A DNA stretch of 64,000 bases from Raillietiella orientalis (lineage: Eukaryota): the NCBI GenBank assembly GCA_036172245.1, contig JAYWIR010000001.1:3100001-3164000 (forward strand), in the 5' to 3' direction. The translations under genes and the position numbers were made by a program. This document shows positions 5,186-53,220 of the stretch, in pieces. The stretch's first letter is position 1. The number at the start of each line of letters is the position of its first letter. The notes beneath the pieces are model-generated. The model was not told the origin of the DNA. It ran no database searches and worked only from the letters and a program-made list of their open reading frames with translations.

Positions 5186-5447
5186 CATTCGGGCGTGGCA
5201 CCGGTGGTCGTTTAAGCCGGTGGCCTGGAAGGAATCAAGGAGTGGGGAGTTCCCCCTCCGGTCGTACAACGGAGAGAGGACCCCCCTCAAGGGGGGATCC
5301 CTTCGGTTTCAAGATGGAGCAGGAGCCCTCACGGGCACCTCTCCAGTTGTTCAAAGGAATGGACCCCCCCTGCTGCGGGGGGGGGACCCTCCGAGTCGCC
5401 GCCTCTTCACAGAGTGCAAGGAAGCAAGCGAGAGCAATTTTCTCAGG
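5186..5447 (+). mobile_element. SINE copy S1, internal fragment lacking head and tail
   Basis: Aligns with about 9744-10035 of S2 (e.g. ttcggtttcaagatggagcaggagccctcacgggcacctctccagttgtt is shared) with an internal deletion. Confidence 0.85.
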
Positions 5448-8400: not shown

Positions 8401-9591
8401 TTGTATTTGCTTCATGTCGTGTTCGAAATGTGGCATTCCGTTAAGTACTTACTATACTTACAAAATCATGCATTCAAATATGGTATTTCAAAATTAGCTT
8501 CAAAGTATTTGGAAACAGGAATCCATGTTATGTAGGTTTTTATCCCTGCTTCCAGCCGTGAGTTATGTACTTTTTTTAGGTACATGTCGTGTATGCCTTT
8601 GGTTACACGGATTGCAGATGCCGAGTCGAAAGGCATTAAAGCATCGCTTTTTCTTATACAAAGGTCAGGCGGAAAGTACGCTAAGGAAAGCGACACACGG
8701 AATGTGGAATTCGTGTTCCCATCCGAAGAGTGTTTTGACACAAGCAAATAAAGGATTGGCGCTTCATCTGAATTTGTCTTTCCCCAAAATTGGCCGGAGA
8801 AGCGTGGAAGTCCTCCAGCCTGGTTCGAGAAAACGCGCCGAAGATCAATCATCCACCACCATCAGGTGTCCTGGACCCTCGGAAGAGCAATTTCATCTGG
8901 ACATGTAGCAGGCAGGCGCAAGCGAATGTGCTTCTTTGCCTATGCGAAATGACATGTGGCCGGATTTGGCCCCAAAATAAATGCTGGGCGTTTGTTCAGG
9001 TGGAAAATGGAACTGGAAGGAAGGGATTCTTTCGAAAGGAAACGGAAGATTTCCTTATCTCTTTGCACAAATCCCCCAAAGAGGTTCGAGCATACGCGTT
9101 TACATTGAACTTACTGGTGCCACTCTCCGGCCGCGCCATCAGCACGATTTTCGACGAATCGAGCACCTGGAAACGCCTTTTTCTTCCTTTCCATTCCATG
9201 AAAAGTGCAACAACGATACGAATTACGAAGATGGTTTTCCATAATCTTCCCTCCTGTGCATGAAAGTCGGTTTGATGACCCACGGGCAACTTTTTCCTAG
9301 ACTTTTTCCTTTGCGGATCCTGGCTATTCTTCTTCTAACTTCATTCCAGCTGCAGCTTCCATTGGATGATCTGCATCATCCGGTGCGGGTGTCCCAGTCC
9401 GTCACTTTTACTTTGACGTAACGAAAAGGCTGAGAAGCGACGGTCTCTTGCTAAGAAAGGACTTGCGAACATCTTGCACTCTGCACCCGTTTCGTGCGGA
9501 GCTGTTGGTTTCCCATCTCAAATTCACGGGATTCTCTCGCATACTAGTTTATCGAACAGCCCATCCGGCTTGTCTCTAAATCTGTAGAAAG

Positions 9592-10688
9592 CCCGCGTCG
9601 GAGGCTTTGTGGTTAAGGCTTCCGCGCGTGGCACCAGAATGAAATGATGCAACCCACAGCCTCACACCATGCGTCGCGGGTTCGAATACTTCGGCAGAAA
9701 CTGACGCCACTGCGTCGTTGGGTTTCACCTGCAATGGCCTCATCATTCGGGCATGGCACGGGCGGTGGATTAAGCCGGAGGCCCCCGATGAAGGCCGGAA
9801 CAATGGGAGTCGACCTTCGGGTTCTCCCAGGAATCAAGGACTAGGGAGTTCCCCCTCTGGTCGTGCAACGGAGAGCGGACCCCCCTCACCGGGGGACCAC
9901 TTTCGGTTTCAAGATGGAGCAGGAGCCCTCACGGGCACCTCTCCAGTTGTTTAAAGGAGCGGACCCCCCAATTGCGGGGGACCCTCCGAGTCGTCGCCTC
10001 TTCAAAGAGTGCAAGGAAGCAAGCGAGAGCGATTCCCTGCGGGAAGCTGCAGCGCCCCTTCTGAGTTTCGGGAGCGTCCCTTCGGGGTTCTCTTCAGAGG
10101 AGTGAACAGGAACGGTTCCCTTGCGGGTTCCCTCCGGAGAAGAAATTCCTACTAGCGGATCCTTTCCGAGTTACCTTCGAAGAAGATGAAGTGGAGAGGA
10201 GCACCCCCCTCTTCCGGGGTGGTCCCTCCAGAGAGAATGAGGAAGGAGATTCCCTTCGCGGTTCCCCTTCGGAGACAACCAGGGTGGGAGGTGCGATCCT
10301 CCCCCCCGTCCGGAGGTGATCCCTCCCCAAGCGTGAGAGGAACGGACTCCGAGTCCTTCCTGGATTCACAGGGCGGATCTCCATCCCGGGGTTCCCCCTG
10401 TCCTGAAGAATTACACACCCCCTTGCGGGTTGTCGCAGGGGAGTGGCGTGGAAACTAAACAGTGTGTTTAAAAAGAGCCACGTGCGCCGCGAGGCACGCG
10501 ACCGGCTCTGAGGTACTTAGCGAACCAAAAAAAAAAAAAAGCCCACAAAAAAAAAAATAATCTGGAAGGAAAAAACAGCGAAGACAGAAGAAAAAAGAAG
10601 GACCCAGGATTTCCAAAGAAGGATTTCCATCATCCTAGGCCAATAGTAACGATCTCTTCGTGGGGTCGTTACTGGCCTTTTAAATAAA
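9592..10688 (+). mobile_element. Full-length tRNA-headed SINE-like element with hairpin array, copy S2
   Basis: A-box-like TGGTTAAGG near 9610 and B-box-like GGGTTCGAAT at 9678. Followed by a tandem stem-loop body, an internal A-tract (10527-10557) and a tail ending AAATAAA. Perfect 14-bp TSD AAATCTGTAGAAAG at 9578-9591 and 10689-10702. Seven other homologous copies in the window. Confidence 0.92.
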
Positions 10689-12924
10689 AAATCTGTAGAA
10701 AGTAAATAGAAGCTAGGAAGGAAAATACTGTATAACATCAAAGGACTAAGCCAGAAAAAGCGAGTACTGAAACATACACAAAGTTATTTTTAGAAAGTTG
10801 ATCTTGAGCATGTTGCCAGTTTGAACTGCAAGACACAGAATTTAGTTGCAGAGACCTGACGAAATGCTTTGGGGCAGGTTCTTCGGGCCCTGACGAACAA
10901 GGGCAACAGAACCAGCGAATGCACGTGAAGGTCATCTGAAGATCCCCAGACTCTCTGCGTGGAATTTTCTTCCATCGATGCCTTAGTTACAGTACTGCTC
11001 CTTTCCCATACAAAAAATCAATGCATGAGCCATTCGATGGGACCTTTATTCATGCCTCTGGATACAGTGGCGGATCTTCAGGGAAGGCGTAGCACGTGCA
11101 CTCCTCAACGGAAAAGATGGTAAGCCAAGCCACTAGGCTCCGCTTCACTGACACTTTGATAAGATCGATCGATCCTCAATAGGTAGTGATACCTGTGATC
11201 TGAAGAGAGACAGCGAAAGCAAACAGACAGACAGTCCATCTCGAAACCAAGCAAAAGCATTCGAACGAGATCGCATTCCATTTGCAAAGCTAAAGGTGCC
11301 TTCCAGGGATTAAAATAGCTTAAAGGGTTAAGCAGCATGGCTTGCACTTCGGTTTCTGAACTCGAGTGCACCAAGAGGTGCTCTCAGGAATCCCTTTTGA
11401 GGTCCTTACATCCCTCTTGGATGAAATGAAAATGTCTCTCCATTGCACATCAGCTCCTATGCTTTATAACCGTCTTTGACGCTTCCGGAACAAACCCTTG
11501 ATGAAAGTAAAGAATGTTAATGACTTCGTGCATTTTCACCGGTTCGAATTCGGGTGACTTTGCTGAAAACAGCAGGGAACTCCGATGCTCGAGTCATCAG
11601 ACACAACTTTTTCTGTCATATTTGCTTCGAGCCCGTGTTTACCTGAGAGGAATGCTCTCCTGGATGAAATTTCCATCAGATACGTGGGGATTTTGAATCA
11701 AGCAGCTCTCGCAGTTTCCTTGGCCACGTAGGCACTGGCGTCGTCTGCTGAAGTCTACTTTTTCCGAGTGCCTCGAGTCTCTTGAATAGGCGAACACCGG
11801 AACACTCTTTCTAAAGGGGAAACCTGGCTAAATTATTGAAAAATGATGGATGCAAGGAAGAAGGAAGAAAAGAGAGAGACACCAAGCAGCACTCGTTCGG
11901 GAGTGGGCGTTGCCCACTCCTGGAAACCCCTTGGAAAGCTTCTGAATTCTACTTCCTGAAAGCAATCACGGGAATGCTGTTGAACTGAGCTCTCATTCAC
12001 TCCGGTAATGTCACCTAATGACCGTCGGTCAAATTTGAAATGTGGGTTCCTTGCTAGAACGAGGGCTTTTAATCTCTGGAAGCAAACAACCCATACGGAA
12101 ACACATGCATTTGCGGATGCGTGCGGATGGCTTTCCATCTCATGAAGATGAAGACATCCAGCCATTTGCTGGAACATCACGGCTTCCTGAAGACTGGAGT
12201 GATTTCGGAGCCGAACGAAAGCGGAAAGCTTCGAGAATTTTCTCATAATGACGACATCAGCATGCCAAGCATGCTGCTTGACAGCAGTGCCAAGAAACCA
12301 TCGTCTGGAACAGCGTTTCCCCATGGCGGGACACTTGGCAAATCCTGGAATTTCAACGGAATACCTTGGTTATTTGGTAGGGTGGGGCCAGATACGAATG
12401 ACGAATGAAGTCAAGCAAGTAAATAGGAGAGCCAAGAAAACAAAGCAAAAACATGTATTCTCGAATTTTAATTATGTGAAATGTTCGTGATTTTTTCCGG
12501 AACGCTTATCGACTTTCCGCGGAACACAGTCTGAGAAACGCTGACCTAGAAGGGTGCCCCCTACTATACAACTCGGCTGCAAGGTCACCTAGCATCGTCA
12601 GACATGGAAGAAATTACTCTTGCAGCAATTCACGCGATTTTCGTTTCCCGTTGGAGATGATTTTTCCAGCTGATCTTTCCCGGTGACAGGCGGCAAATGC
12701 TTCTCAGTGAATTGGAAAAACAATTTTAGCAATGTTTTGTAAAGATATAAATCTTTGCGCTGCATCGGTGTCAATCACTTACGAAATGAAAAAAAGAAAA
12801 GGAAAGAAATTAACTGCAGCTTCAGAAATCTCCTGCACCCGAAGCAGGAGATCATCCTGCAATGAGTACGCTGACTACATACTTCTTGTACCAAAGTGCA
12901 CACCAGATTTAGATATGGGGAGAG

Positions 12925-16447: not shown

Positions 16448-17159
16448 TTGGGGAGGGATCCCCCCTGGACGGGGGGGATCGCACCTCCCACCCTGGTTGT
16501 CTCCGAAGGGGAACCGCGAAGGGAATCTCCTTCCTCATTCTCTCCGGATGGACCACCCCGGAAGGGGGGTGGTCCTCTCCACTTCAACTTCTCCTAAGGG
16601 AACCCGGAAAGGATCCGCTTGTAGGAATTTCTTCTCCGGAGGGAACCCGCAAGGGAACCGTTCCTGTTCACTCTTCTGAAGAGAACCCCGAAGGGACGCT
16701 TCCGAAACTCAGAAGGGGCGCTGCAGCTTCCTGCAGGGAATCGCTCTCGCTTGCTTCCTTGTGCACACTCTTTGAAGAGGCGACGAAGGATGGACCCCCC
16801 AACAGGGGGGGTCCGCTCCTTTGAACAACTGGAGAGGTGCCCGCGCGGGCTCCTGCTCCATCTTGAAACCGGAGGCGCTTCCCCGGTGACAGGGGTCTGC
16901 TCTCCGTTGCACGACCAGAGGGGGAACTCCCTAGTCCTTGATTCCTGGGAGGACCCGAAGATCGACTCCCATTGTTCCGGCCTTCATCGGGGGCCTCCGG
17001 CTTAATCCACTGCCGGTGCCACGCCCGAATGTCTCGGCCAACCGGCACCATTGCAGGTGAAACCCAACGACGCAGTGGCGTCAGTTTCTGCCGAAGTATT
17101 CGAACCCGCGACGCATGGTGCCATGCGCGGAAGTCTTAACCACAAAGCCTCCTCCGCGG
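16448..17159 (-). mobile_element. SINE copy S3, 3'-truncated, close to S2
   Basis: Reverse complement of S2 from the head (ccgcggaggaggctttgtggttaag...gggttcgaatacttcggc) to about 10330. Tail absent. Confidence 0.92.
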
Positions 17160-20100: not shown

Positions 20101-21294
20101 TTGCGGCGGTGCTGTCCTACTTTCATGGGACAGCATCGTATCTCGGGGCATTTCCTAAATTGTGGAGAATAGCTCAAGGTGCTGATCACCCCTGCAGTCC
20201 GGGTGAACTTTCTGTCCGCACACGCTTATGGATTCCTCGGATGGAGCTGGCCGAATGCTCAGATGTGTATGATGTGAAGTACCCATTCGAAATCCAATTC
20301 AGTATCAGATTTCCTGATCTGTCTACACAAGGAAAGAGAACAAATGCGTGCTCTCTTTTCAGTGATCTTCTCCTGATTAAGAATCAACTCTTCTCTTAGG
20401 AGGGACAGAACTTCAGATACGTCTTAAATGTCTCCTTAGATGCCGTGCTTTATTTTATCATGCTTATTTTATTTGGATTGCCAATTTCAGCGTGCAGCGT
20501 GCACTTATTTTTCCGGCTTCCCATCCAAAAGCAAATGAAGTGTGTCGATAAGCTGAGGGCCACCGAGTGCATTGGTACTTGTGGTTGTGAGAACGAGATA
20601 ATCCAGCGGAGAATTCAACGAGATAATCCTTCCAGCAATTTATTTGTTTTTGTTTGTAGGAGAGCACATTTTCTCAGGAACATTTCATACGAGCGGTTTC
20701 TCAGCCAAAAGCGCGCAGTTGCCTAGGATACAGAGTTCTTAGAGCACTGCGCGTTGATGAATATGTAGAGAAACCCGACTTGTAGATGCGAGTTTACTTA
20801 TAGGAGAATCCATTGATGGAAAAGTAAATTATTTGCAGAGAAACGTATCGTACACGGATTCCAGTTCCACCGTTTCCATGGTTTCAGTATTCACTTCCTG
20901 TTTAGTTGGTGCTCGGGTGGTTATCGGTGAAGACTTTACTTTCGCCCTCTCGCTGCATCATTTCTTGGCTGGGATCGCTTTCTGCACGATGCTTTTCAAG
21001 CCATCAGAAGAAAGCCAGAACACCGACTTGAAGAACTTTTGAATTGGCCGCCCACTCGGTCTTGTGGTGTTGACACGACTTCTGCGTGCAAGAAAATCGT
21101 GCTGCGATTCGGACAGTAGCGAGGTTTGAATCGCTGGACGATGGCTCTTTCAAAATAACGAGCTATCATCGAAGAAAAGCCAATTGCCCAATTGCTGCTT
21201 CAGTGGCCTCCGTGACCTTTCGCTGTCGTTCGCAAGTGAGACAGTGTTTTGCTTTTCGGATATCTTCGTTCCTCACCTGTTTGTGGACTCGTCG

Positions 21295-21982
21295 GCCCGC
21301 GTAGGAGGCCATGTGGTTACTGTGGTCTCCGCGTGTGGCACTCGGCATTGCGAGTTCGAATAGTCGGCAAGAATCGGAGCAAAGAGTTTGTGCGCGTCGT
21401 GGGTTCGAGTCGGAGATAACGCTGTTCGACCTATACTTCCCGGGAAGGCGCCCAGTAGTGGTGCAAACTGTATGCCCCCGACGAGGTCCCAAGCAATGGA
21501 AGTCGACCTCCGAATCCCTTCCAGGAATTAAGGAGTGGAAGTTACCTTCCGGCCGTGCACAGGAGCGGACTCCCCTTTGGGGGGGACCCTCCGTAGAATA
21601 GGTGTGTCGCCACATCTCTAGAGTTCCAGAGAAGCGTGCCGCTTTCTTCGGGGAGAGCTCCCTTCTGAATTTCGGAAGCGTCCCTTCGGGGTTCCCTTCG
21701 GAGAAGAAAACATGGAGCGGACCCCTTCGGGGGTCCCTCCCTAGAGAGTAAAGAAAGGGAGGATTCTCTTCCGGGTTCCCGTCGGAGGCAACCAGGGTTG
21801 GGAGGTTCCCTTCGGGGATGCCTCCCCAGGCTTGAGAGGCGGTCCCTCCCCGGTATCTTGAAGAATTAACACACGTACCCTCGGGTGGGGTGGGGAACAG
21901 TCTCAAAGAGCTGCGTGGGATGCTGGTTCTTGAAGTACTCAGCGAACCCCCACAAAAAAGCTAAAAGCGAAGATTTCCATCG
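21295..21982 (+). mobile_element. SINE copy S4, divergent, with fewer hairpin units
   Basis: Head gcccgcgtaggaggccatgtggtt...gagttcgaat, shared ccaggaat(t/c)aagga, canonical hairpin at 21714-21740, then agtactcagcgaacc + A-tract + gaagatttccatc. Confidence 0.88.
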
Positions 21983-24900
21983 TGTCTTTGCATGGGACTG
22001 GGATATAATCAACGGTCAAGTTCTTCCAGCACGTCGTCAAAGCGCGAGTAATCATTAGCGTCTCCGTCAGGCGTGACGCAGTAGGGAATTTTAGAGCAAA
22101 ACGGTGCAAAATATCAAGATGTACACACACTTTTAGTTTCGCTTTCTGGTGATGTAGTAAGGATCCCTCTCGGTCGCGAGGAAGCTGCGAACTGATACCC
22201 ATTCCACACTCGAAGGACTCTTCAGAAGCAGAAATGTGTGAAGAGGAACAGCTCTTTATACATTTCTGCCAGTAGTTTCAGGGCACTGGTGTTCACAAGG
22301 ATTGCCATGGCCATCGAACCCCCACGTGCCACATCTCCCACGAGGAGCTTTGCATGAAAATCTCATGCAGGTCGTCCTGCAGTTTTCTTCCAGAGAAAGA
22401 ATGAGGTCTTTGAGGCAGTCGGCTCAAAGCTGAAAACTCATAACAGCCTCTTCAGCACGAGTGATTTTCCATGGGAAAGCGATCTCACCTACGAGCACCA
22501 TATTCAGAAACCTTCCTCCATGACGAAGAGGGAGAAAATGTGTGCCAGAAGCAACCAAAGGTTTCGAAATCATGCACCATGTGGTCCAGGGATGCCCGAC
22601 TGTAAGAAAGCAGTGGACGCAGTATGGAAAAACAGAAAATCTGGCAAGAGTGATCTGAGAATCCATGTGTTGCTGGAAGAAGCTGTTGCAAACAAAAAAA
22701 GAAAACTTTCCAAGGGCCTCTTCATTTATTTTCTAAGCTTCGAGAGCCCACGAACCCGTCCAGTCATCCGAAGAGGAAAACAGATCTCCTACGCCCAAGA
22801 ATTCTCAGCCTCCACGTTTTAGCAACCTTTCTCTCTGTCTTCAACGATACAGGAAATGACGCCTGATAACGCTTCCATCTGTGATGATTACTGCTTTATT
22901 TGCTGTTATTGATTTGATTTGATTTGCCTTTATTAATTGTGGTTATTACAAGAAACGTATCTTGTCAATGATCAGGTCTTGTTCCTTCCTGGAGATGATG
23001 ACCACAAAACATCTCCCAGGAAGGTTTCTTCATTGCACACCTATGAGGGAGCAACGAATTTCAGCTGTTGCATTCCCAGAAGTGCATTCAACAGAAAACG
23101 CGGGGTATCTGGGATCTGCAACCCCATATTTTCGGGAGAAAAATTTCTCCGTGCCTTCTTGCAGAGAAACTGCTAACCAAGTGAACCTGGTAGAGCGAGC
23201 GATCTTTGGAAAAGATCTGCGTGCTCATGGGAGAAGGATGAGCGTGGTCTACGCTTCCTCCTGCAACTTGTAAGGCCATTATTTTCCCGGCAACAAGTAT
23301 GTCTGCATTCAGATGAAGGTAAGACAAAGGGATAGACTGTGATTGAAACTGAGATATGCAGGGAAATAACGATAAGAAATATTTTTGGTCCTCTGCACTA
23401 GGCTAGTGTCTGCGGACACAGTTAAGGGATCTTAGGTCTCATGAATCGAAGGAAGAAGGAAAAGGAGAGCACGAAAAAGGGCAGCGGTTTGAGGGTGCCA
23501 ATAGTAGAGAGGAACAGTTCTTTGATTAAGTGATGACTCTTTGATTCTCTTCGTCCAAAGTCGGTGGCATTCTTCACCTCGTGCTCTGAAGAAACATTTT
23601 ACTGGATCTGGTGCCCGTTCATCACCATTTGCCGTCTGGAAAAGGTGGCGATTTTCCTCTTAGTTTCTAGAATAGGATGAAAAATAGAAATTGAATCGCA
23701 TATCTCATGAGTGCCAAGCAGCAACATCCAACAAATCGACGTATCACAAGAATGCGTGGAGTCAAATGAAGCACCAAAGGATGAAGTTAGGAAAAGAAAT
23801 CAACATGCCGCGAACCTGAAGGGAATCTCGAGGAGGGGGTGGGATGCTGGAGCACAGAAAGCATCCACTAGCTGCTGCTGACTTCATAGCTTACCATTCA
23901 TCCTCTGGTTTCCCGATTCGTGTTTATGGTTTTCGAACTGTTGACTCAACATACCTCAGGTGCATGCCTTTGCCCAGGGACCACGAATGGTTCAAAGAGG
24001 AAAAGGCGAGGAAGCAAGTCGGTTTTGCTCTTTAAGAAGCTTGCAGAAGCGAAACGGTGTTTCCTGTCCTGATGAGGAGCATGAGATCCTCTTGTGGACC
24101 GCAGGGATGAATTCTTCTAGAGGAAGAATTATTTCTCAGGAATATTTCTCCCGCATCTCCTCTAGAAGGAGATTCAGGAGTCGAGTTCCAGGAGAACCAC
24201 TCTGTGGTATAAAACAATTGGTTATCGAAGAACCGGAAAACTTAAGGAAGCTTTTTTTTTTTTAAAAAAAAAAAAAAAGGCATCCCATAAAACTTAGTTT
24301 TTTTTTTTCAAAAAATAAAAAAAAAGGAAGGAAAAAAGAGTAACCAGAATCTGAGTATGAATCTGCAGAAAGTGTTTGGAGCTTAAGAAAGAGATCTGAG
24401 GGGAAGATCGACGTCTAAACAGTAATGCTGACCAGATTTGTCGCTCTAATTTGCCTTCCTGCTTCGAAAGTGAATGCTATAAGCGGGTTCGCAAACGCGA
24501 TGTCTTCCTGTGTAGGTGAATTCCTCTACGGGAGAGCACGAAAAGCAGCAAACACAGAACAGGAACAAACTGACTCGTAAGTGTCAGCAGCAGCTCATCA
24601 CGGCTGTTTGGCTCCAGACAGCATTCGGTTAAGCACGCAGGTGAAAAACCTCCTGGAAGGTGGAAACGTGTCTTGCCCTCCTAAGCAACCAATGGATTAA
24701 ATTATGAATCAGCCCACAGAGGAAGGTACTGAGATGGAGATTAAGACAAAGTTCCATCTATTCTGAATCCTCGAGTTTGGTTTTCAGGTGGCAAATTCTT
24801 TAATGGCAGAGATGAACTCTGACAGACTCTTTTCTTCTTTGCATTAGCGATTTGAGCGAAGAAGCAAAAGTGATCCACAAGAGGCATGTCGAAAAGGACA

Positions 24901-29495: not shown

Positions 29496-29496
29496 G

Positions 29497-31109
29497 GTGG
29501 CTCACGATGCTCTTCAGACACTGACCACGCCACCCATGGGGGCGTGAGGCTCTTCCAGCTATGGGGTAATCCCGGAGGGAGACCACGCTATGGATCCAGG
29601 AAGGCTTCGGAGGAAGGCATCCATACCTCTTACGCTTGGCAGAAGAGTTCTGAAAGGAACCTCAGCCCTGGTTGTTTCCGGAAGGACCCCCGGAGGTGAC
29701 CTCTCCATTCACTATAAAATTAAATTCAAATACACAAAATAAGACAGTCTTGCTTAATACAATCTTTCATTCAGGTTACCAATTAAATAACTAATTATTA
29801 TGCTACCTTAGTACAGTCAATATACCACAGCTGTTTATTATACACCGGGCAGATTATACCTTATATTACTCATAAGGAAATGTCTTTAAGAAACAGTTTA
29901 AACAAATTTTTGCTGAATTCCTTATAATATTCTCACTTTACAAATTTCTTTTCCTAAGGAAACCCAGAAAGAATCCATCCCCGGAATTTCTTCTCCGAAG
30001 GGAACCCGCAAGGAAACCTCTCCCTGTTTCCTATTCTGAAGAGAACCCCGAAGAGACGCTTCCAAGTTTTCTCTGAAGGGTCGCTCTCCGAAGGGAGCAG
30101 CGCTCTCCTTACACACTGGAATGCTACCCGAGGGGGATATCAACCAGCTCTATGGGACGAGATGGAGAGATCCCTCTTTACAACCGGAGGGGAACCCCAA
30201 AGGGCTCCTTGATTCCTGGAAGGACCCCGGAGAGCCAACTTCTAATCCCGACCAGTCAACGGGAGCATCTGGCTTCGACCAGTGCCTCGATACTGCTGCA
30301 CTGGGGCCTCTCGTGCAACGCTCACCCGCATCTGTGGACACGCGGGGGAGTGGACTCAAACTGTGCAAATTGTGGGGAGCGGGAATCCTTCCTGCACCTC
30401 CTAGTGGACTATGTTGCCCTCCGGCTCCTTTGGGGACGCTTTGCCACGACCCTTTGAATCCCCGGCGGCAACGCCAGAGACGTTGTAAAGCGCCTCTTCC
30501 TGCGCGACGCCCTCACTCCGGCCGCATCCCTAGCAGTACTGTGCGGCCCATGCGGCGGGACCTTGACTGTATGGAGCAGCGACAAAGGAGGAGGCCAGAA
30601 CGAAGGGACGCCAATTATTCTGCTGTCCTCTTCATGAGTACAGAGTCAACATGGACCCATCTGAGAGTCTTGAAACAGGAACAGCCGGCATCCTTACAAG
30701 GATGCAGAGGACGCCCTCCAGAACACAGTGATCTTTCCCGAACCTTTTTTTGAGTGTATATTTTTTGTTTTTCTTTTTGTTTATCTCCCCTTCCCCTGTG
30801 CTGCTGAGATGAACCCTGCTGGCCTGCGTGCCAGATCCTGGCAGGCTCCTTTTCGTATCCATAAGTAACGTGGCAGGATCAAACGTCCTGCCAAAGGCAT
30901 GTAGGTTTAGAAATAAACTCCCTGGCGTGACCAGGTGTCAATAGGGCCGCGCCCAAAGTCTGTAGGCCAACCAGCGTCATCCTGCAGGAGGGGGCTCGAA
31001 ATCCATGACGCATCCATCATTCTCGGCTCGATCCTTCCCCGGGCGGGATTCGAACCCGCAACGCGTGGTACGACGCGCGGAGACCACAGCCACACGGCCG
31101 CCAACGCGG
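29497..31109 (-). mobile_element. SINE copy S5, interrupted by an AT-rich insert (29711-29945) and LINE L2 (30287-30940)
   Basis: Segments 29497-29710, 29946-30286 and 30941-31109 are collinear with S7/S8/S3. Head gcgggttcgaatcccgcccggggaaggatcga on the minus strand. Confidence 0.88.
30287..30940 (+). mobile_element. 5'-truncated LINE 3' end (L2) nested in SINE S5
   Basis: LLHWGLSCNAHPHLWTRGGVDSNCANCGERESFLHLLVDYVALRLLW (zf-RVT-like), T-rich UTR, AATAAA at 30912 followed by a CCTGG/CCAGG hairpin. Confidence 0.88.
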
Positions 31110-33149
31110 TGGTTCCACGTTCCCATTATTCCTGTGCTTCCCCTTTGACCTCGTTCACCAGATTGGTCTTCGCTCCTGACCAAGGGTAGTAGTGCCTCAG
31201 TGGTTGCGAGCATGCTACGGAGTCCCATCCCCCATCACGCGTCCTCCGCACGCAGGATCCACATCTTCCTGTGCGGAGCTCTGCTCCGTGGACGACAAGG
31301 AGGTGGAAACGGGCCTCATGTCCTCCGATACTTTGAAAATTACTTGACCTGCGATGCGGCCACACGCGGGACATGGTCCTCCCGTGGTAAGGGCGTGTTT
31401 CCCATTAAAAGAGCACCATGCCTTCCTGACCTAAAGAAAAACTGAGTGCAAGAACAAAGCGCTGCCTTTGTGCTCCCTGTGCACTTCGTCGGCATGTTCT
31501 TGTTCCAGAGAAGGGGGAGGGGGGATCAGGGACAGAAAGCACCTATTGACAGCGCATAAAAGCAGTTTCCAGGGTTACTACAAACCACTGACTGTCATTC
31601 GAACCACAGGCAGCCGACCCTTGGAAAAAAGAGGAATGCACTGATGCACGTCATTATTGCACGTTTGCAAGCGCCCGATCCGGAGGGAGGGACTCGAGAA
31701 AGCGAACCTTGTTTCCAGAGCCACGACGCGGATGTTCTTCAGAACTAGTCGTTCCCTCAATGCTCCCGGGAACTGCTCTGACAAACGGGAAGGGATGTTT
31801 TTTTTTTTGGCCCGGTAGCGAAGGATCCCAAACTCTCTGACATGGAGATGACAACACCTTCCAGATGGAAAGAATTCCAATGGTGGCTTTCCGATCGCCG
31901 GAAGGGGAAATACCCTCTTCCCTACCCTCGCTATGGGAGGGCTAGCTCAGACTCCAAGCTCGAGCCTCGCTCAGCCCGCTTGTTTCCGGAAGAAACTGGT
32001 ACTGCGAACCATCCTTTTCGATATCTGCCGCCCCTCCGAAAGATCGGAGGACGGTTCGAGGAGATGTGGCAAACATTCGAACCGGCTTTTCAGTTCTCCC
32101 CGAGACGAGCAAGGGAGCCAGCCTGAACCCTCGCGGCAGACTCCTTGGGAACTCCCTTTCGCACGTATGCGGATGCAGCATGAGATGCACGCTGCATCCG
32201 GTGCGTTCCAACGAGCAGAGTGGCCGAGATAAATCGCTCGGTTCACCGGCGAGAAGAAACGGAAGAAACCCGCGGCGGCAGAAGCGGCAGACACTGCAAC
32301 AAGCAGCTGCTTCTGCATTCGGAGGATGCATCACCGTCCTCCTGGACGGGACAAGTGTTTGTGAAGACGGTAGGGCGTGCCCCAGACCGTTCGCTGCACA
32401 AGCGCCCTCAACTTGTAAATAAATGCACGTTGTGAATGGATTTTTTTTCTTCCTCACCCTCCGATACGAGCGCACACCTCTGAGGCGCAAACGGATCAAA
32501 AGGATTCAGACTCCGTTTCGGTCCTTGTTTGGCCTTTCTGGACCGTGGCTGATGCATCTGCCTTTCGAAAGACCGCTCTGTCTTCTTCCGCACACCTTTA
32601 AACGGCGAACGCAGCTGTGCTTTCACTTATGGTTAGGCCAATTTGAAAAAAAATCATGAGCGATGATCGTTGGTCACTACCGTCATCATGTGGAAGGAAC
32701 CTCGGCTCCGTTGAAGGGAAGGAAAAGGCGTTCTTCCTCCGATCAACTCTCTATCTCCAGATGCATCCCATGCTGCAGCGTCCACTACGGTTTCTTGAAA
32801 GCTTGCGCGAAAGCACGCATCCAGAAAAGTGTACAACGAAGCGGACACGCCAGTGCCGTTGAAAAGCACCAGACGCCACCGGAGAGTTCACCAGTCAAAG
32901 TGAATAACCAGAGGTCACACAGGCAGCATGTCCGCATGCCTCCTGGCTTTTCTGCAGTTCCTGCCGATCTCGAGAAATCCCGGCCCGTTCCTTTACCAAA
33001 CCCAGCGGGATGCCCACATGCTGCTCTCGGATGTTCCTGCTCGGGGGCTTGCGAATGCGTCGCTCTCGGGGCCGCTTTCCCCAGCCAAGTTCCTCCTCCT
33101 GCCTAGCTGGCGAAATCGGCGCGGCACGTTCGCGCCGCGCGTGTCGCGC

Positions 33150-34479: not shown

Positions 34480-35900
34480 GAGGACTGTGGAATGTTCCCA
34501 CTCCACGTCCGACTTCTCTCCGGATGCTGCTTGGCGGCCGGAAGACGCGCGAGTTAATGGGTGCCGTCACTCCGCGTGCTGTGGTGAAGGGGGCTCCTGC
34601 AGTGGAGTCGATTTCCCCGAAGAACTTGTGGTCCCTTCCCATTGCTTGGACACTTTAGTGTTCCCCCTCTCCAGGAAACAGGTCGTGCTGCTCTTCCTCC
34701 ACAGGCGGTTCCAGTGCAATGAGCGCAGTCACCGCGTTTCCCTCAGGGGTTACATTCCCGAACTGTGCCAGATGCGGATCTGCGAAGTCGATCCCTCACC
34801 TGTTTTTGGACTTCGGTACCCTCCTGGAACTGTGACGGAGGCTGGCAGCAGCACTCTTGCACCGGAGGGACACAGCCCGAGATGTGCTGCGGCGGTTCTT
34901 CGTGTCCAGCGGACTTTCGATGGACGCGGTGATTTCACACCCGGGTACGCCGGGGCGTTTATTCGGTTACACGAATCGATGGAGCCGATGGTCCATCAAA
35001 TCCCATTGTTATACTAGAAAGAAGGGGAGCAGCCGGAGAGGTCCATCACGTCCACGAAAGGGAAGGGGGAGATGAAACAAAATATGAAATGAAAACAAAC
35101 TATAACAAGCATCCCCCACCCAAAAAAAAAAAAAACAATAAAACAAACAAAAATTAGTTCGGGGGAAGGGAAGGGATCACATTTCATGGTGGATGAGGCC
35201 TCTGAATCCGTTGAAGGATGCCGGCGAGCTCCTCATTCTCCCTTTCTAGGTGGGGCCATCCCAAAGCTATCCGCAGGAAGCGGATGGCGTGCGGGACAGC
35301 CCCCCCGTCGCTTCGGCCTCCCTCGGCGTCGCACTTCGCCGCGACGACACCGCGCACGCAGCACAGCGCTGCGATTGCGGCTGCAGGCGTTATGGCGTCC
35401 CGCACGAAGAGGAGCCTCAAAGAGTCTCTGGGATCGTCCGCGGGATGTGGAATGGACGCGGAGAAACTTTCTCACAATTCCCGGAGGGCGACACAGTGCA
35501 CTATGAGGTGAGGGAAGGCCTCCTTCTCTCCACACCCGGCACAGTTCGTCGATGAGCTTCCCCTCGTCCAGTGGTGCCGGCGCGCATTGCACGGGAGACC
35601 CCAGAGCAGTGTCAGCAGCGCCGATTGCTGCCACTTGAAGGGAAGCAGCTTCCTGTCTATAAACAAGAAGGGAACTTCTAACTCTTCGGGCTGAATGGAG
35701 AAGAGTTCGCTCCAACGTTCGGCGCAGTGATCGCAGCTATAGGTTGCATCCTTGAGACCGTCACGGCCCACCATGTGCTCGAGACGACCACGCAGCGAAG
35801 GTAGGCCACCGAGATGGCAGCCACCCACATGAGGACGGATGCAAGGTGACCTCACCTGCAAGAAGAAGTGGAGGAGGAAATCGGCGGCATCCAGCGCAGG
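34480..35900 (+). mobile_element. Older-subfamily LINE ORF2 end (L3), interrupted by L4
   Basis: EELVVPSHCLDTLVFP...LFLH...PNCARCGSAKSIPHLFLD...RRFFV before 34933. Resumes at 35721 with AVIAAIGC...PHLQEE...IGGIQRR. Confidence 0.8.
34934..35720 (-). mobile_element. Younger-subfamily LINE 3' end (L4), antisense inside L3
   Basis: RWSELFSIQPEELEVP...WGLPCNARR...NCAGCGEKEAFPHLIVHC. Terminus AATAAAcgCCCCGGcgtaCCCGGGtgtgaa. TSD gacgcggtgat (34923-34933) / ggcgcagtgat (35721-35731). Confidence 0.9.
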
Positions 35901-36149
35901 TTTTGCAAGGAAGGAACGGAAGACACGGATGAACCTTGTTCCTAGCCTCCCTAGCGGACAAAAGACTTCCTCAGGATCGCCCTTTGGGGCACGGGGAGGT
36001 ACCGAGTCCAGCTGAAGGACTTTTGTGCTCCGCTTCGAGACAGCAGCATCGTCCACCTGACGCCGGAGAGATCAGAGCTTCAGCTCCAGGTTAGAATCTA
36101 GGTTAGGGCAAGGATTCTTGCCTTTGTAGCGAAGTTGTGGAGCACACCT

Positions 36150-37381
36150 GGTGAGACCCTTCACGCTTCCTCGTCAAGGAAGCCACTGGCAGCGTGGAAC
36201 TCGTGTCCTTCCTAGCGCGCTGTCGACGCAACGTCTCCCCCTGTGGACTGCAGCTTCGGCGGGTGGCTACACTCACCAGGGCCAGCAGCTGGATCTCGTG
36301 AAGCTCCGCGAACGGTAGTGCCTGGTTGCAGGAAATCATCCTCACGTGGACGAAGAACAAGCGATGCTTGGAACAGGCACAGCAATTGCTTCACTGTTTC
36401 TTATGACAACTGCTCGCTCCGGGAGATCCTGGAACATCCTGTGAAGAGTGCGTGTGTAGGCAGAATCTCCCTTGCCGCAGCACTGCTCTCCTTGCGGGGA
36501 ACATGTGGGCAGCAGAATTACGGCTAGATGAGCGGTTACTGTGGAAATCTCCGGCAGGAGCAGAGGACTGGGTGAGTGGACAACGGGCAGCTTACATAAG
36601 CTGCAACCCCGAGTGCCCCACCTCCAGGACTTTTGCGCTGTGGTGAGCTGCTGGATACTCCGGTGGAAAATCTGCAATGGCCCCCCAGCGCACTTGGAGA
36701 CCCAGACCCCATCATTAAAGTGGCAGGAGTCGGCGTTGATGCTGCTGCACTGGGGTCTCCCATGCAGCGTCAGCAGGCATCCCTGAACCCGGGCGTGTAA
36801 ACCCCAACTGTGCCAGGTACGAGAAGCGTGAATTCCTTCCGCACCTGCTTGTGGATAGTGTTGCCCTCCGGTCCCTCTGGGAACGCTTTGCCGTGATCCT
36901 GCGGACCCTCGACGGCAACTCCAGAGACAGCTCTTCGTACGCGATGCCCTACCTCCAGCCGCAACTCCAGCAGCTCTTTGCTGCCTACGCGGGATTGTAG
37001 CAGCCTGGAGCGATGTAGGAAGAGGACACAGCGACAGGAATGCCACCCAGTTTGCCATCCGCTTCATGAGGATGGCTACAAGATGACCCCATCCGGAAAA
37101 TATGAGGAATGGACTTGCCGGCATCCTTCACAGGATGCAGAAGGACGCCCCCCAGCAGACTGTAATCCCTTCCCGCACCCTTCCAAGTTCGTTTATCTAT
37201 TTTTCTAAATTTTTGTTTGCCTCTTCTCCCTGCTGCCGTGACAAACCTCATTGGTCTGCGTACCGGTGACACGGAAGGTTCCATTTGAAATGGACATGGT
37301 TGGACCAGTGGTCCAACCACAGAGGTTGCGAAGGTTTTATTTTTATATTAAATAAATTTCCCGGAGTGGCCGGGTGAAAAA
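36150..37381 (+). mobile_element. 5'-truncated LINE (L5)
   Basis: CGLQLRRVATLTRASSWI..., LKWQESALMLLHWGLPC, zf-RVT-like segment. AATAAA at 37351 followed by CCCGG-agtgg-CCGGG-tgaaaaa. Confidence 0.85.
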
Positions 37382-39270: not shown

Positions 39271-39978
39271 TCGCCTCGCCGGCCGCTTTCGCTGCGGCCT
39301 CCGCGCGACGTGGTACCGAGCGTCGCAGGTTCGAATCCCACTCGGGGAAGGATCGACGCCGAGAAATGGGGGAGGGGGGACGTCGTGGGTTTCGAGTGCC
39401 TTCCGCAGGATGACGCGAGTTGGCCTGTCGGCTTCGGACAGGGCACTGATGAGAGCCGGAAGCCCCCGTTGACTGGCCGGGATTGTAAGTTGATCCTCCG
39501 GGGTCCTTCCAGGAATCAAGGAGCTCCTGTTGTGAAAAGGGAGCCGTACCATGGAGCTGGTTGATATACTTTTGGGGATTGCCTCTCCAGAGTGTAAGAA
39601 GCGTACTGCTCTCTTCAGGGAGCGTCCTCCAGAGAAATTGGGAAGCGTCCCTTTGTGGGGTTCTCTTCAAAGGAGGAAAAACAACGAGCAGTTTCCTACC
39701 GTGTTCTCTCCGGAGAAGAAATGAGGATTGTCCCCCTCCCGAGACAACCAGGCGGGGTTCCCTTCGGGGTTCTTCTACCAAACGTAAGAGTGACGGGCTC
39801 CTTCCTCCGGAACCTCCCTGGATCCATGGGGTGACCTCTCTCCTGGGCTGCCCCCTAACTGAAAGACTCACACACACCCTCGGGTGGCGTAGACGCCGCT
39901 CAAAAGCTTGGAGACCTCTTCCTGTAGGGAGGCGAATGGGTCTTCAGTACTCCTTAAGAACCCAAAAAGAAGGATTTC
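39271..39978 (+). mobile_element. SINE copy S6 (second subfamily)
   Basis: Head gcaggttcgaatcccactcgggg, shared ccaggaatcaagga and hairpin units. Tail ends after gaaggatttc. Confidence 0.9.
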
Positions 39979-41054
39979 TCGCGTGTTGCTTGAGAGGTCG
40001 GCGGCAGTTGAAGATCGCGGCGACGGAGAGCATCCACATCGGGAAGCAGGGCGTAACGGGGCATCAACGGTCATACCACGTCCTGGTCTTCGCACTGCTC
40101 CGGATCCTGAGCAACGCTCTTTTTTTTGTTTGATTTCCTTCCCTTCACTCCCTCTTCCCCCTTCTCTCTCTCCCATCCAGCGGTCCCAGCGCGAGAAGAG
40201 CAGACCTCCACCTGACGCGGTCGCCGGCTGCTGGTGAAGGGAGACAGGCAGGGAGGAGCAATCCCACGCGGGGGGAGCTCCGCTGACCCATAGGAGCCTC
40301 GCAGTGCACTTTTCGCGCCCAGGCAACGGAAACACCCCAGAAAAGGAAACGGAAGGAACCGCGGGCGGGCATCCGGAGCGCGTGCGACCCTCAGCACGCG
40401 GGAGCACACGGGTCCGCTTGAGGGGAGCGGGGGGGAGTCCGTTCGTCCGTTCACGCGCTCCTTTTCCCCTGCAGTCGCTCCGGGAAGACCTGACGGAGGG
40501 CCCCAAGAAGCTGGGAAGCCGTCCGTCTGGAGGAGGCGAGCGCAGGAAGGGGAAGGGGGGGAGGGACCGGGTCGCGGTGCGAGGAGCCCTGGGACGTCTG
40601 CGCGCGCAGTCCGCTGCTCCCGAAAGACGAAGCGGCGTTTCCTGAAAGCGAAAACCCCGCTGCCTGCCTTTCGCGTCTCACGGCGCACTCTGCCGCCGGA
40701 AATCCGGCGTTATCTGATGGCCACGACTTTCCTACGGCGCGTGAGATTCCAGTCTCTAGGAAACGGATGAAGGGATGCAGGGAGGGAGGAGAAAAAAAAA
40801 AAAAAAAAGGATGGAAGGAAAGAAAAGCATGGCTTGGAGATAAGGAACTGAAATCGGAAGCAAACCTGGAAAGGGGGGAGAGGTTCCTTTCCAGAGTTTC
40901 CTGGTGGAGAATTTCCTGGGAGCTGCCCTTCCCGCTGCCCTACGGAACGGGTACAAAAAAAAATTCCGAATCTTCCGGTTCGACTGGCCACCGAGCGCCG
41001 GCAGCGACAGGCGGTTGAGCCTGGCCGTTCCTCTGTCCTTGCAACAACTCCTTC

Positions 41055-41848
41055 TTATGAAAGTCCAGGGACATCTATCGTTGTTGTTGGCCTGGACTAA
41101 TGGCAACCCTCTTGGGTTTTTCCGCCCTCTCCACTTTCCTTCCAGTTGTTTTTTTCTTGGTTCTCAAGGAGTGCTGGAGAAACCGTTCGCCTCCCTATGA
41201 GAGGGGGGAGGGGGGAAGTTTTTTAACGCTGTTCACGCTACTCGAGGGACTCTTCCGGTTAGGGGGGCATCCCGGGGGGAGGCCACCCCATGGATCCAGG
41301 AAGGCTCTGGAAAAAGGAGTCCGTCCCTCTTAAGTTCGGTAGAAGAACCCCGAAGGGAACCCCGCCTGGTTGTCTCGGGAGGGGGACAATCCTCATTTCT
41401 TCTCCGGAGAGAACACGGTAGGAAACTGCTCGTTGTTTTTCCTCCTTTGAAGAGAACCCCACAAAGGGACGCTTCCCAATTTCTCTGGAGGACGCTCCCT
41501 GAAGGGAGCAGTACGCTTCTTACACTCTGGAGAGGCAATCCCCAAAAGTATATCAACCAGCTCCATGGTACGGCTCCCTTTTCACAACAGGAGCTCCTTG
41601 ATTCCTGGAAGGACCCCGGAGGATCAACTTACAATCCCGGCCAGTCAACGGGGGCTTCCGGCTCTCATCAGTGCCCTGTCCGAAGCCGACAGGCCAACTC
41701 GCGTCATCCTGCGGAAGGCACTCGAAACCCACGACGTCCCCCCTCCCCCATTTCTCGGCGTCGATCCTTCCCCGAGTGGGATTCGAACCTGCGACGCTCG
41801 GTATCACTCGCGCAGAGGCCCGCAGTCACGCGGCTGCTAGAGCGGCCC
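41055..41848 (-). mobile_element. SINE copy S7, convergent with S6
   Basis: Reverse complement of S6. Its tail (ctggaaggaaa...ccattagtccaggccaacaacaacgat...ctggactttcataa) is homologous to the S2 tail. Confidence 0.9.
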
Positions 41849-41849
41849 A

Positions 41850-42125
41850 TGTGGCCACGGTCCCGTCACCCCCTCCTAGGACACAATCGCCAGCGCCATT
41901 TGCTCCTTAGGGGGGGAAGACGGGAGACTCCCGTCAGGGATCACGTTCCATCCATGCTGGGACAGCATCTTGCTGCGCGCCAAGGTGGCCGTGCGGGAGC
42001 AAGGAAACGGAGACCTGGTTGCCTGAAGCCCTATCTCCCTCATCGAACGAGACTCCGCACCTTTTTTCTTGTCGGAGACCAGCACTCCCTGTGCGTTGAC
42101 ACCCGAAAGCAGCAGGTTCGAAGCC
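41850..42125 (+). pseudogene. Possible decayed non-LTR reverse transcriptase N-terminal fragment
   Basis: GITFHPCWDSILLRAKV...GNGDLVA*SPISLIERD resembles the W....I..I.K...RPISL...D motif of LINE RTs. Confidence 0.35.
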
Positions 42126-51170: not shown

Positions 51171-51540
51171 GAGACCCTCCTCCTCTTACCAGTAGCCCCC
51201 TGACGTCGAATTTTTGCCGGCGGATTTTCGAGTGTCAGGAATGTGGAACTTGCAGATAACTTCTGCTTCCAACCTCGAGAAGGAAACGAACGCCGTCGTT
51301 CATCCTGCTGACCCAGTGCGAACGCGCGTACATGAGAAACAAAAATGTGCCTAGGGGTGTTTGCATGTCGATATACGGACAGAAAGCCCTTTTTCGCCAG
51401 TGCTGCTGACCTCTGCAAAGAACAGGACCGAAAGGTATCTGAGGATTGCGAAACCCCGTTTGAAGAGCAGGACGTTTCTATTTGTATTCGACAGGAAAAT
51501 TCCCCTCCTGTCGAAGGCACGGTGCATCGAAGCAGAACAA

Positions 51541-53220
51541 GATTGGAAGTTGACCCCCTCGTAGTCCTTCCAAGAATCAAGGAGTCAGTCCCCTTCGGGG
51601 CTCCCTCCGGTTGTGCAGATGATCTCCACTGCGTACCACGGAGCTGGTTGATGCACCCCCGGGGGTTGCCTCTTTAGAGTCAGAAGCATGCTTCTCCCTT
51701 CGGGAGCGCCCTCCAGAGAAATTGGGAAGCGTCCCTTCGAGGTTCTCTTCAGAGGACGAGTAACAAGGAGCAGTTCTCTTGCTGCTCCCACCGGAGAAGA
51801 GATTCAAGATTCAACTCTACTGGTTTCCTCGGAAGAAAAAAAGAGGGGCGGAGGAACCATCTGGAGAGAATAGGGAAGAGGTTTCCTTCGGGATTCTCTT
51901 CCAAGCATAAGGGGGACCAACTCGTTCCTCCGGAGCCTTCCTGGATTCATAGGGTGGTCCCTCCAGGGTCACCTCTTAACTTGAAGAGTCACACGCAGTC
52001 TCGGGGATGGAGTGGGCAGTGTTTAAAGAGCTTCGTGAGCCCCCCCTAAGGAAGCAAAGGGTTCTTCAGTGCTTTGGTAACCAAAAAAAACAAAACCCGA
52101 AAAAACAAACAAACAAAAGCTGAAAGGAAAGCAGCGAAAGCAGAATAACCCAAAAGGAATTCTATCATCCAAGGTCCCCTCTCCTTGCCCCAGAGCTACC
52201 CTCCCTAAGGGACGCAAGGGACAGCGTAATCCCAGCAAGGTGAGAAGTGACTTGCCGCATAGCAGCAAAGAAGAAACTTCTGGGGTCGTGGACAACTCGG
52301 GAAGTGACCGACGCTGCGACTCCGAGTGTCCCACCCCAAGGACCTGCACGCTGGGGTGATCTGCTCGACATCCCTCCGGAGAAGGTGAAGTAGTCCCCAT
52401 CGTGCTGCAGCAGCGGAGTGCTCCCCCTCAAATGGCAGGAGTTGGCTGCTGCATGGAGGAAATCCCGTGCAAAGCGCGCCTTCTCCCCCAACTGGACACG
52501 GGAGGAGCGTGGATGCTAAGTGCGACAGGTGCGGGAAGAAGGAGACCCTTCAGCACCTGCTGTTGGACTGTGCTGTCCTCCGATCCCTTTGGGATCGCCT
52601 TGCGACGATCCTAGGAACCCCGGAGGGCGGCCCCAGGGACATTTTCAAACGCCTCTTCGCGCGTCCCGCCTCTGCTGCCAGCCGCATCCCTAGCACTTTT
52701 CCCTGCTGTGTTCTCGGGAATCACGGTGGCCTGGAACGTCAGAAGAGACCGAAATGGCAGGGACGTCATCCACTGGGTGCGGATCTTCCGGAAAACCGGC
52801 TCGATATGTCCCCTCCTGGGTGCGACACGGGTGGAACTGGCCAGCATCCTGAATAGGATGCCGAGGACGCCTGGCAGTGTACTGTGATCCCTTCCTCTCC
52901 CCCTCCCCCTCCTCATGCATAATTTCCCTTCCTCTGTTTGTTTGTTTTTTTGCTTCCCCTTCCCCCACGCTGACGGAGCGGACCTCGCCGGTCTGTGTGT
53001 TGGTCTTTGGCTGGTGCATTGCACGTGGTAGAACCAAGGGCTCCAACACACCAATGTATTTTTCTTACTTATGTAATTAAATCTCCAGCATAACCAGGTG
53101 ATGATCATCCAAGACCAGTAGCAGCCAACCATGTGTGAGTGAAATCATCAACGATCGGCAGCAATAGGGAACGCTAGAAAGAGAATGGTGGTGGGGGGGT
53201 CAGATCAATGGCTATTAATA
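51541..53220 (+). mobile_element. SINE copy S8, 5'-truncated, tail interrupted by LINE L9
   Basis: Body homologous to S6 from gattggaagttgacc. A-tract at 52083-52118. Tail ctgaaaggaaagcagcgaa...tctatcatccaag|accagtag matches the S2 tail. Right boundary uncertain. Confidence 0.8.
52174..53103 (+). mobile_element. 5'-truncated LINE (L9) nested in the SINE S8 tail
   Basis: GSWTTREVTDA...RWGDLL..., KCDRCGKKETLQHLLLDCAVLRSLWDRLA. ATTAAA + ccaggtg terminus. Perfect TSD ATCATCCAAG at 52164-52173 and 53104-53113. Confidence 0.92.

Follow-up and report, generated by a model that had tools for sequence, protein, structure and literature searches.

A 1,097-bp SINE-like retroposon and its relatives in a 64-kb stretch of the Raillietiella orientalis genome

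We analysed a stretch of 64,000 nucleotides of Raillietiella orientalis DNA (GenBank assembly GCA_036172245.1, contig JAYWIR010000001.1, positions 3,100,001 to 3,164,000 of the forward strand; hereafter the window, numbered from its first letter). A first-pass annotation of this window had described, at 9578-10702, a tRNA-headed retroposon resembling a short interspersed element (SINE). The locus, here called S2 as the second of eight related loci (S1 to S8), is a real and correctly delimited copy of a sizeable retroposon family, ordinary in kind and unusual in length. The family is probably one of non-coding, non-autonomous and composite SINE-like retroposons without long terminal repeats (non-LTR), mobilised by a long interspersed element (LINE) and integrated by target-primed reverse transcription (TPRT) of an RNA intermediate.

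The borders of S2 were given by a target-site duplication (TSD). The 14-mer AAATCTGTAGAAAG had exactly two matches in the window, one at each border of the element, and at least two matches were found in 0 of 100 shuffles. It was also the longest exact match between the two flanks of S2 (14 nt; in the null, the mean was 5.6 and the 95th percentile 7). Because the duplication places the borders at 9591 and 10689, the element itself occupies 9592-10688 and is 1,097 bp long, so that both the perfect 14-bp TSD and the length of about 1.1 kb proposed at first pass held. S2 begins with CCCGCG and ends with AAATAAA. Its target reads CT/AAAT, where the slash marks the junction; the target thus starts with AAA after CT.

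The coding capacity and termini of S2 were then compared with those of the main classes of mobile elements. A Pfam scan of the 13 open reading frames (ORFs) of the element detected no family at or above the cutoff, and relaxing the threshold to E<=0.1 added a single sub-threshold match of low complexity; the 140-amino-acid antisense ORF contained no Pfam domain. S2 is therefore without protein-coding capacity, as is general for SINEs, and is non-autonomous. It is interspersed and non-tandem, with no tandem array reported by Tandem Repeats Finder. Terminal inverted repeats, the hallmark of DNA transposons and miniature inverted-repeat transposable elements (MITEs), were not detected when the first 60 nt were compared with the reverse complement of the last 60 (score 7, null 6.6 +/- 1.2; 232 of 500 shuffles reached at least that score). 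No terminal direct repeats were found either (386 of 500 shuffles scored at least equally), and S2 has neither the TG..CA ends nor the 4-6 bp TSD of an LTR element or solo LTR. What S2 does have is the TSD (verified in one of six copies tested) and the A-rich 3' end of a TPRT non-LTR retroposon, a class in which TSDs vary in length and 5'-truncated copies occur, as S1 and S8 are here. The assignment as a retroposon, as first annotated, is well supported because the perfect TSD, the A-rich 3' end, the lack of a domain-bearing ORF and of terminal repeats, the 5'-truncated relatives and the LINE remnants nearby all agree with it. The positions of the parts of S2 and of its relatives are listed in Table 1.

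Table 1. Parts of the S2 element and related loci in the window
Feature	Position	Strand	Description
TSD, 5' copy	9578..9591	+	AAATCTGTAGAAAG; exact-match count and flank comparison
Head	9592..9700	+	A-box-like 11-mer 9602-9612; S2-specific 33-nt insert 9636-9668; B-box GGTTCGAATAC 9679-9689
GC-rich non-coding body	9701..10524	+	At least 8 short C-run/loop/G-run motifs; sequence-conserved core about 10046-10150
Pre-linker hairpin	10474..10509	+	-21.7 kcal/mol, z -2.85; 2 of 200 shuffles fold equally well
Internal A-rich linker	10525..10562	+	A14 10527-10540, A11 10547-10557; length varies between copies
Tail unit	10558..10688	+	Purine-rich stretch; terminal hairpin 10638-10677; TTTT 10678-10681; AAATAAA 10682-10688
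TSD, 3' copy	10689..10702	+	Exact-match count and flank comparison
S1	5186..5439	+	S2-type subfamily; internal fragment with 88.6% identity to S2 across 211 nt; 5'-truncated
S3	16449..17159	-	S2-type head and body, 90.6% to S2 over 680 nt; without the 33-nt insert; 3' side cut off
S4	21286..21990	+	Divergent; head, shorter body, shortened tail
S5	29496..31124	-	Head 31124-30931, body 30288-29496; the two separated by a 5'-truncated LINE copy (about 30289-30941, +)
S6	39283..39975	+	A-box region missing
S7	41037..41865	-	Inverted relative to S6; tail present
S8	51536..52175	+	5'-truncated, no head; A-rich linker and part of tail

Searches with blastn and with an nhmmer profile of the family, built from seven sequences (six copies and the S5 head), recovered the same eight loci and no others in the window at E<0.01. 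Pairwise identities separated S1-S3 (79-88%) from S5-S8 (64-87%), with S4 apart from both (54-63% to all other copies). The count of eight copies in 64 kb and the division into at least two subfamilies therefore stand as first annotated. The body of S1-S3 is about 300 nt longer than that of S4-S8 because S1, S2 and S3 have extra body segments in common; relatives outside the S1-S3 subfamily measure about 700-830 bp. Homology among the six head-bearing copies starts within a few nucleotides of 9592, the 5' border of S2, and a common 5' start of this kind is the expectation for a defined transcription start. The modular, composite architecture of the first-pass annotation was likewise recovered, as a head, a body with a conserved core, an A-rich linker and a tail with a hairpin.

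The head carries two motifs that resemble the internal promoter of genes that RNA polymerase III (Pol III) transcribes. The A-box-like 11-mer matches seven of nine specified positions, counted by hand against the textbook consensus. The B-box core GTTCGAAT is invariant in all six heads and forms one of just three invariant blocks of at least six columns in the family. The two boxes are 44 nt apart in S3 and S5, which is the spacing between the A box and B box of a tRNA, and 77 nt apart in S2, where the 33-nt insert intervenes; in S4 a manual count from the head alignment gave 47 nt, for a pair that did not pass the thresholds of the motif scan. Between the two motifs is a small hairpin whose loop holds the insert; S3-S7 lack the insert, as do two contigs of a public DNA run (X1). 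With its two motifs the head resembles a type-2 Pol III promoter, and it may be of decayed tRNA origin. The tRNA-like head of the first-pass annotation is reduced by these results to A-box-like and B-box motifs at a tRNA-like spacing, as neither ARAGORN nor Rfam recognised a tRNA. As a separate observation, part of the insert resembles the reverse complement of the A-box-like region.

A structured body had also been proposed, and this was not borne out. Minimum free energy z-scores, calculated with dinucleotide shuffles, were -1.0 to -1.9 for the body and equal on its antisense strand, compared with -1.76 for one flank and -4.6 for the tail. For the conserved core, RNAalifold returned a covariation term of +1.51, with changes on both sides in one of 27 pairs; for the pre-linker hairpin it predicted 0 pairs across copies and gave no covariation support. 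The body therefore folds no better than its shuffles, and structure is confined to the tail. Its 40-nt terminal hairpin (10638-10677) has a predicted energy of -24.8 kcal/mol and a z-score of -6.3, with 0 of 200 shuffles folding equally well. By manual reading, two base pairs of this stem differ on both sides between S7 and S2 with pairing kept; as the S7 hairpin is weaker (z -1.5), these paired changes are just a hint.

The internal A-tract is not the end of the element, as had been noted at first pass, for a tail of about 130 nt follows it within the brackets of the TSD. The purine-rich start of this tail and the sequence that follows are common to S2, S5, S7 and S8 and are shortened in S4 and S6. 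The earlier statement that the tail is present in S7 and S8 and partly in S4 and S6 thus held, and S5 can be added to the list. Because the tail occurs in both main subfamilies, which are about 60% identical, its fusion to the element is ancestral and not specific to S2. We also observed that the start of the tail after the A-tract (AATCTGGAAGGAAA, 10558-10575) resembles the TSD AAATCTGTAGAAAG at 9578-9591. As this tail motif is conserved in S5, S7 and S8, the resemblance is probably due to chance or microhomology.

Remnants of a LINE family were found in the same window. Six 3' ends of one family were located, at 30912-30941, 37351-37381, 45700-45729 and 53075-53104 on the plus strand and at 34963-34933 and 62642-62612 on the minus strand. 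Each consists of AATAAA, about 3 nt, a CCCGG-N5-CCGGG hairpin and a short TG..AA(A) terminus, which places AATAAA 22-25 nt before the 3' end. One copy has a compensatory CCTGG/CCAGG variant of the hairpin, and five of the six also have, upstream of AATAAA, another hairpin whose sequence varies. ORF remnants at 35475-36071 (-) and 52389-52853 (+) gave two weak matches to zf-RVT, typical of the C-termini of LINE ORF2, and an Atlas feature match to zf-RVT clusters was 0.98. A Pfam search of the 255 stop-to-stop ORFs of 61-464 amino acids in the window gave no match above the cutoff, with no reverse transcriptase or endonuclease domain, and a search for relatives of the LINE protein returned 0 matches at near and longer lengths. 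Comparison of the S2 tail with the reverse complement of the LINE 3' ends gave scores of up to z 2.8, which were rejected as A/T low complexity.

We next considered how S2 might have been transcribed. Its first sense-strand TTTT lies at position 1087 of 1,097 (10678-10681), immediately after the terminal hairpin and with 7 nt left to the end of the element, a placement that remains notable. The sense strands of S1, S3, S4 and S8 are free of TTTT, as is that of S2 before 10678; one internal TTTT is common to S6 and S7, with a second in S7. A tRNA-derived head and transcription by Pol III are only suggested, by the invariant B-box core, the box spacing and the terminal T4. Pol III transcription is plausible on these motifs, if somewhat short of an even prospect. 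If it occurred, transcription would start about 10 nt upstream of the A-box-like motif, from the internal type-2 promoter, and would terminate at the terminal T4, after which a few A residues could be added or be templated. A LINE endonuclease would then nick the target at CT/AAAT (a T-rich nick) and its reverse transcriptase would prime on the A-rich end, with the hairpin, the A-rich end or both serving as the recognition module. Taken in full, such a scheme would make the family a composite SINE of 0.8-1.1 kb genuinely driven by Pol III, with about 1.09 kb free of T4, a T4 stop behind the hairpin and a short A-tail that primes LINE-mediated reverse transcription, similar to the mammalian T+ SINEs but outside mammals. 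We consider this complete version unlikely.

A series of results weighs against a Pol III-driven SINE. ARAGORN detected 0 tRNAs in the whole window, in the six heads (at default and 95% thresholds) and in the majority head consensus, and Rfam at E<=10 gave no tRNA, 5S or 7SL match for S2 or for the head of S3. The S5 head had a weak partial match to tRNA-Sec, covering 35 nt of the variable-arm and T-arm part at 17.4 bits (gathering score 47) and E 0.36; at gathering thresholds Rfam had 0 matches in the whole window. Lowering ARAGORN to 70% and 50% thresholds yielded 12 calls on the six heads, which lay on both strands, were mutually inconsistent and were rejected as noise. At the thresholds of the motif scan, nine box pairs were observed in the window, several of them homologous, compared with about three expected by chance. 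SINEBase describes SINEs as generally shorter than 700 bp, or shorter than 1 kb, and as interspersed and non-tandem, and uses at least 60% identity to tRNA, 5S or 7SL RNA over at least 60 nt as a criterion, with promoter boxes counted as indicative and not as proof (Vassetzky and Kramerov 2013, PMC3531059). At 1,097 bp S2 exceeds this length, and the older copies S4, S6 and S7, at about 700-830 bp, are borderline; identity to these RNAs was covered by the proxies ARAGORN and Rfam only, both negative save for the weak partial match of S5. S2 is therefore termed SINE-like here and is not classed among the SINEs.

The pattern of T-runs counts against Pol III in the same way. Over 1,086 nt, TTTT was absent from 15 of 2000 dinucleotide shuffles and from 647 of 2000 mononucleotide shuffles (32%). 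AAAA is also missing from positions 1-878 of S2, and S1 and S3 contain neither run. As AAAA is equally depleted in the body, the depletion of TTTT is not strand-specific and follows composition and motif content. The first-pass annotation had listed these runs correctly; the significance that it attached to their absence is diminished, the depletion being symmetrical on both strands and reproduced by many mononucleotide shuffles. In addition, S6 and S7 lack the A box and carry internal TTTT, and in S2 AAATAAA lies after T4, so that the template RNA must have either read through T4 or been extended after termination.

Results on the other copies and on the LINE ends weigh against the proposed reading of S2 as a whole. 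No exact flanking repeat of at least 7 nt was found for S3, S4 or S5, and the best repeat flanking S7 (7 nt) was within the null. S6 is bracketed by a 10-bp exact direct repeat, GAAGATCGCG, at 39219-39228 and 40010-40019 (null 95th percentile 8), whose two copies are 54 nt before the start and 34 nt past the end of the homologous part. This repeat could be the TSD of a copy with transduced flanks, or chance. The 3' ends differ between copies, and a verifiable TSD and 3' end were found in S2 only. The first-pass annotation had made its proposal depend on TSDs or consistent ends in other copies: the 5' ends do agree in six copies, and outside S2 neither a clear TSD nor the same 3' end was found. 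Finally, the forward comparison of the S2 tail with the 3' ends of the LINE family gave z of about 0. The tail of S2 thus shows no likeness to the LINE 3' ends of the window, and its terminus AAATAAA is A-rich but short; either so short an A-rich end is enough, or the partner LINE is located in another part of the genome.

These results leave room for a family that was mobilised by LINEs and transcribed by RNA polymerase II (Pol II), as a non-autonomous retroposon or a family of long non-coding RNA retrocopies, with vestigial or chance boxes and with the 3' AATAAA as a relic of a polyadenylation signal. The lengths of 0.7-1.1 kb, the lack of a detectable tRNA, the internal TTTT of S6 and S7 and the symmetrical depletion of T-runs and A-runs are in keeping with such an origin, as is the AAATAAA at 10682-10688, given that the neighbouring LINE family also has AATAAA close to its 3' end. 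However, the B-box core is invariant in six of six heads despite a family identity of about 60%, the 44-nt box spacing is that of a tRNA with the element starting about 10 nt upstream of the A-box-like motif, and S2 stops right after AATAAA, unlike the neighbouring LINEs, where 22-25 nt separate the signal from the end. We regard Pol II transcription as a serious but doubtful alternative.

Two further explanations concern the retroposon itself. S2 could be a secondary composite, in which a shorter SINE ended at the A-tract (10527-10557) and the 130-nt tail was joined to this copy alone as a 3'-transduced flank or a second small element. The A14 and A11 tract does resemble a former poly(A) tail, S4 and S6 are without most of the tail, and summed contig depth in X1, 33-42 in the body, is no more than 4.7-6.4 across the tail. 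This origin is nevertheless improbable, as the start of the tail and the sequence after it recur in S5, S7 and S8, whose subfamily is about 60% identical to S2, and the A-tract is not followed by a second TSD copy. That S2 is no retroposon at all, and belongs instead to the DNA transposons or MITEs, the Helitrons or the solo LTRs, or arose by segmental duplication with a direct repeat due to chance, is very improbable. Verification of the TSD in a single copy would allow it, and a hairpin near the 3' end is a feature of Helitrons too. The lack of terminal inverted or direct repeats, a 14-mer repeat far beyond chance, and the A-rich terminus together with 5'-truncated relatives all argue for a retroposon. 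Most DNA transposons and LTR elements, moreover, generate short TSDs of fixed length and Helitrons make none, unlike the 14-bp duplication of S2.

As a probable LINE-mobilised SINE-like retroposon, S2 was compared with known systems. It has in common with tRNA-derived SINEs the head-body-tail layout, 5' A-box and B-box motifs at tRNA-like spacing, non-coding sequence, interspersed occurrence, a TSD and an A-rich end, as well as subfamilies that differ by internal insertions or duplications and a conserved central stretch. It differs from them in that no similarity to tRNA was demonstrated, in that a unique hairpin-bearing unit of 130 nt, and not a simple repeat, forms its tail, and in length: the SINEBase paper gives a range of 75-662 nt for 175 families (PMC3531059), compared with 1,097 bp for S2 and about 700-830 bp for its relatives. 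Mammalian T+ SINEs (B2, Dip, Ves and Can) are described as having an A-tail at the 3' end, together with AATAAA and a terminator for Pol III (PMC8466645). S2 is similar in its T4 terminator-like run and AATAAA-containing A-rich terminus at the extreme 3' end, an arrangement that, by analogy, would fit termination followed by A-addition before reverse transcription. It differs from these SINEs in that T4 precedes AAATAAA with no AATAAA upstream, and in an A-tail of just 7 nt. The window, which is gene-poor and eukaryotic-looking, is also without strong CpG depletion (observed/expected 0.87), unlike mammalian genomes, in which CpG is strongly depleted.

Composite retroposons offer a second comparison. 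Alu is a dimeric SINE with an internal A-rich linker and SVA is a composite retroposon; in these as in S2 an internal A-rich tract joins two units that are mobilised as one, and length variants arise in the body. The second unit of S2 differs in being no recognisable SINE monomer, and S2 has neither a 7SL head nor a tandem array of the variable-number type. Reviews by Okada and Ohshima reportedly describe stringent LINE/SINE pairs in which the SINE copies the 3' stem-loop of its LINE. S2 resembles such pairs in having a very stable stem-loop within 11 nt of its 3' end, in a window whose LINE family also has conserved 3' stem-loops with compensatory changes. It differs from them in that its tail has no similarity to the LINE 3' end and the order of hairpin and AATAAA is not the same.

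If the family is transcribed by Pol III, it would stretch the accepted size range of SINEs and would provide a natural test case on two points, the distance over which Pol III can travel along a retroposon template and 3' ends of the terminator-plus-A-tail kind outside mammals. With Pol II as the driver, it would be one more LINE-dependent non-autonomous retroposon. Under either origin this is a sizeable unannotated repeat family, with eight copies in 64 kb, which should be taken into account when repeats are masked and genes predicted in this genome, and the TSD-flanked S2 supplies exact borders for building a consensus.

Copies beyond the window were sought in the contigs of X1. Perfect matches to the flanks had a depth of 0-7 per bin, and summed depth over the body was 20-42. 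A total of 112 contigs aligned, mostly on the body; 59 of these were below 90% identity, and their joints skipped 33-223 nt, including the 33-nt head insert in two contigs. Because of the excess depth of the body, the low identities and the skipping joints, many diverged copies of variable length appear to be present elsewhere in the X1 genome. No joint in these contigs removed the whole S2 element, hence they hold no evidence of an empty site. A 24-mer conserved in S5, S6 and S7 had 0 matches in contigs of prokaryote genomes and 0 in viral contigs. An 18-mer scan of metagenome contigs produced 29 loci, whose matches of just 18-26 nt were attributed to chance. Searches of literature text for four element strings of 13-18 nt and for phrases such as long SINE and longest SINE returned nothing relevant, the 13-mer alone giving unrelated matches. 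In a paper on the mobilome of Apicomplexa, tRNAscan is reported to have recovered intact tRNAs alone and no SINEs. A coccidian origin of the DNA was considered; the word SINE does not occur in the passages covered of the Sarcocystis neurona genome paper, and the organellar LSU rRNA fragment inside S5, being contiguous and reduced, is no obvious fit for such an origin.

Several minor observations were made on the other copies. The sequence of S3 stops at a perfect palindrome whose arms are 17 nt long (16436-16394, -), and its 5' flank (17185-17158, -) forms a hairpin with a 10-bp stem that drew a spurious mir-145-like Rfam match (E 0.013). Positions 39348-39767 of S6 and 41770-41350 of S7 are identical at 419 of 420 positions, and on either side, within the elements, identity is only 52-85%; recent gene conversion between nearby inverted repeats would leave such a pattern. 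The body of S5 contains an AT-rich (29% GC) fragment of large-subunit (LSU) rRNA at 29753-29901 (-), which matches positions 1887-2086 of the Rfam model LSU_rRNA_archaea (36.6 bits, E 2.8e-9) and lacks a helix. The fragment has the appearance of organellar rRNA, probably mitochondrial, that was inserted in nuclear DNA within a retroposon copy.

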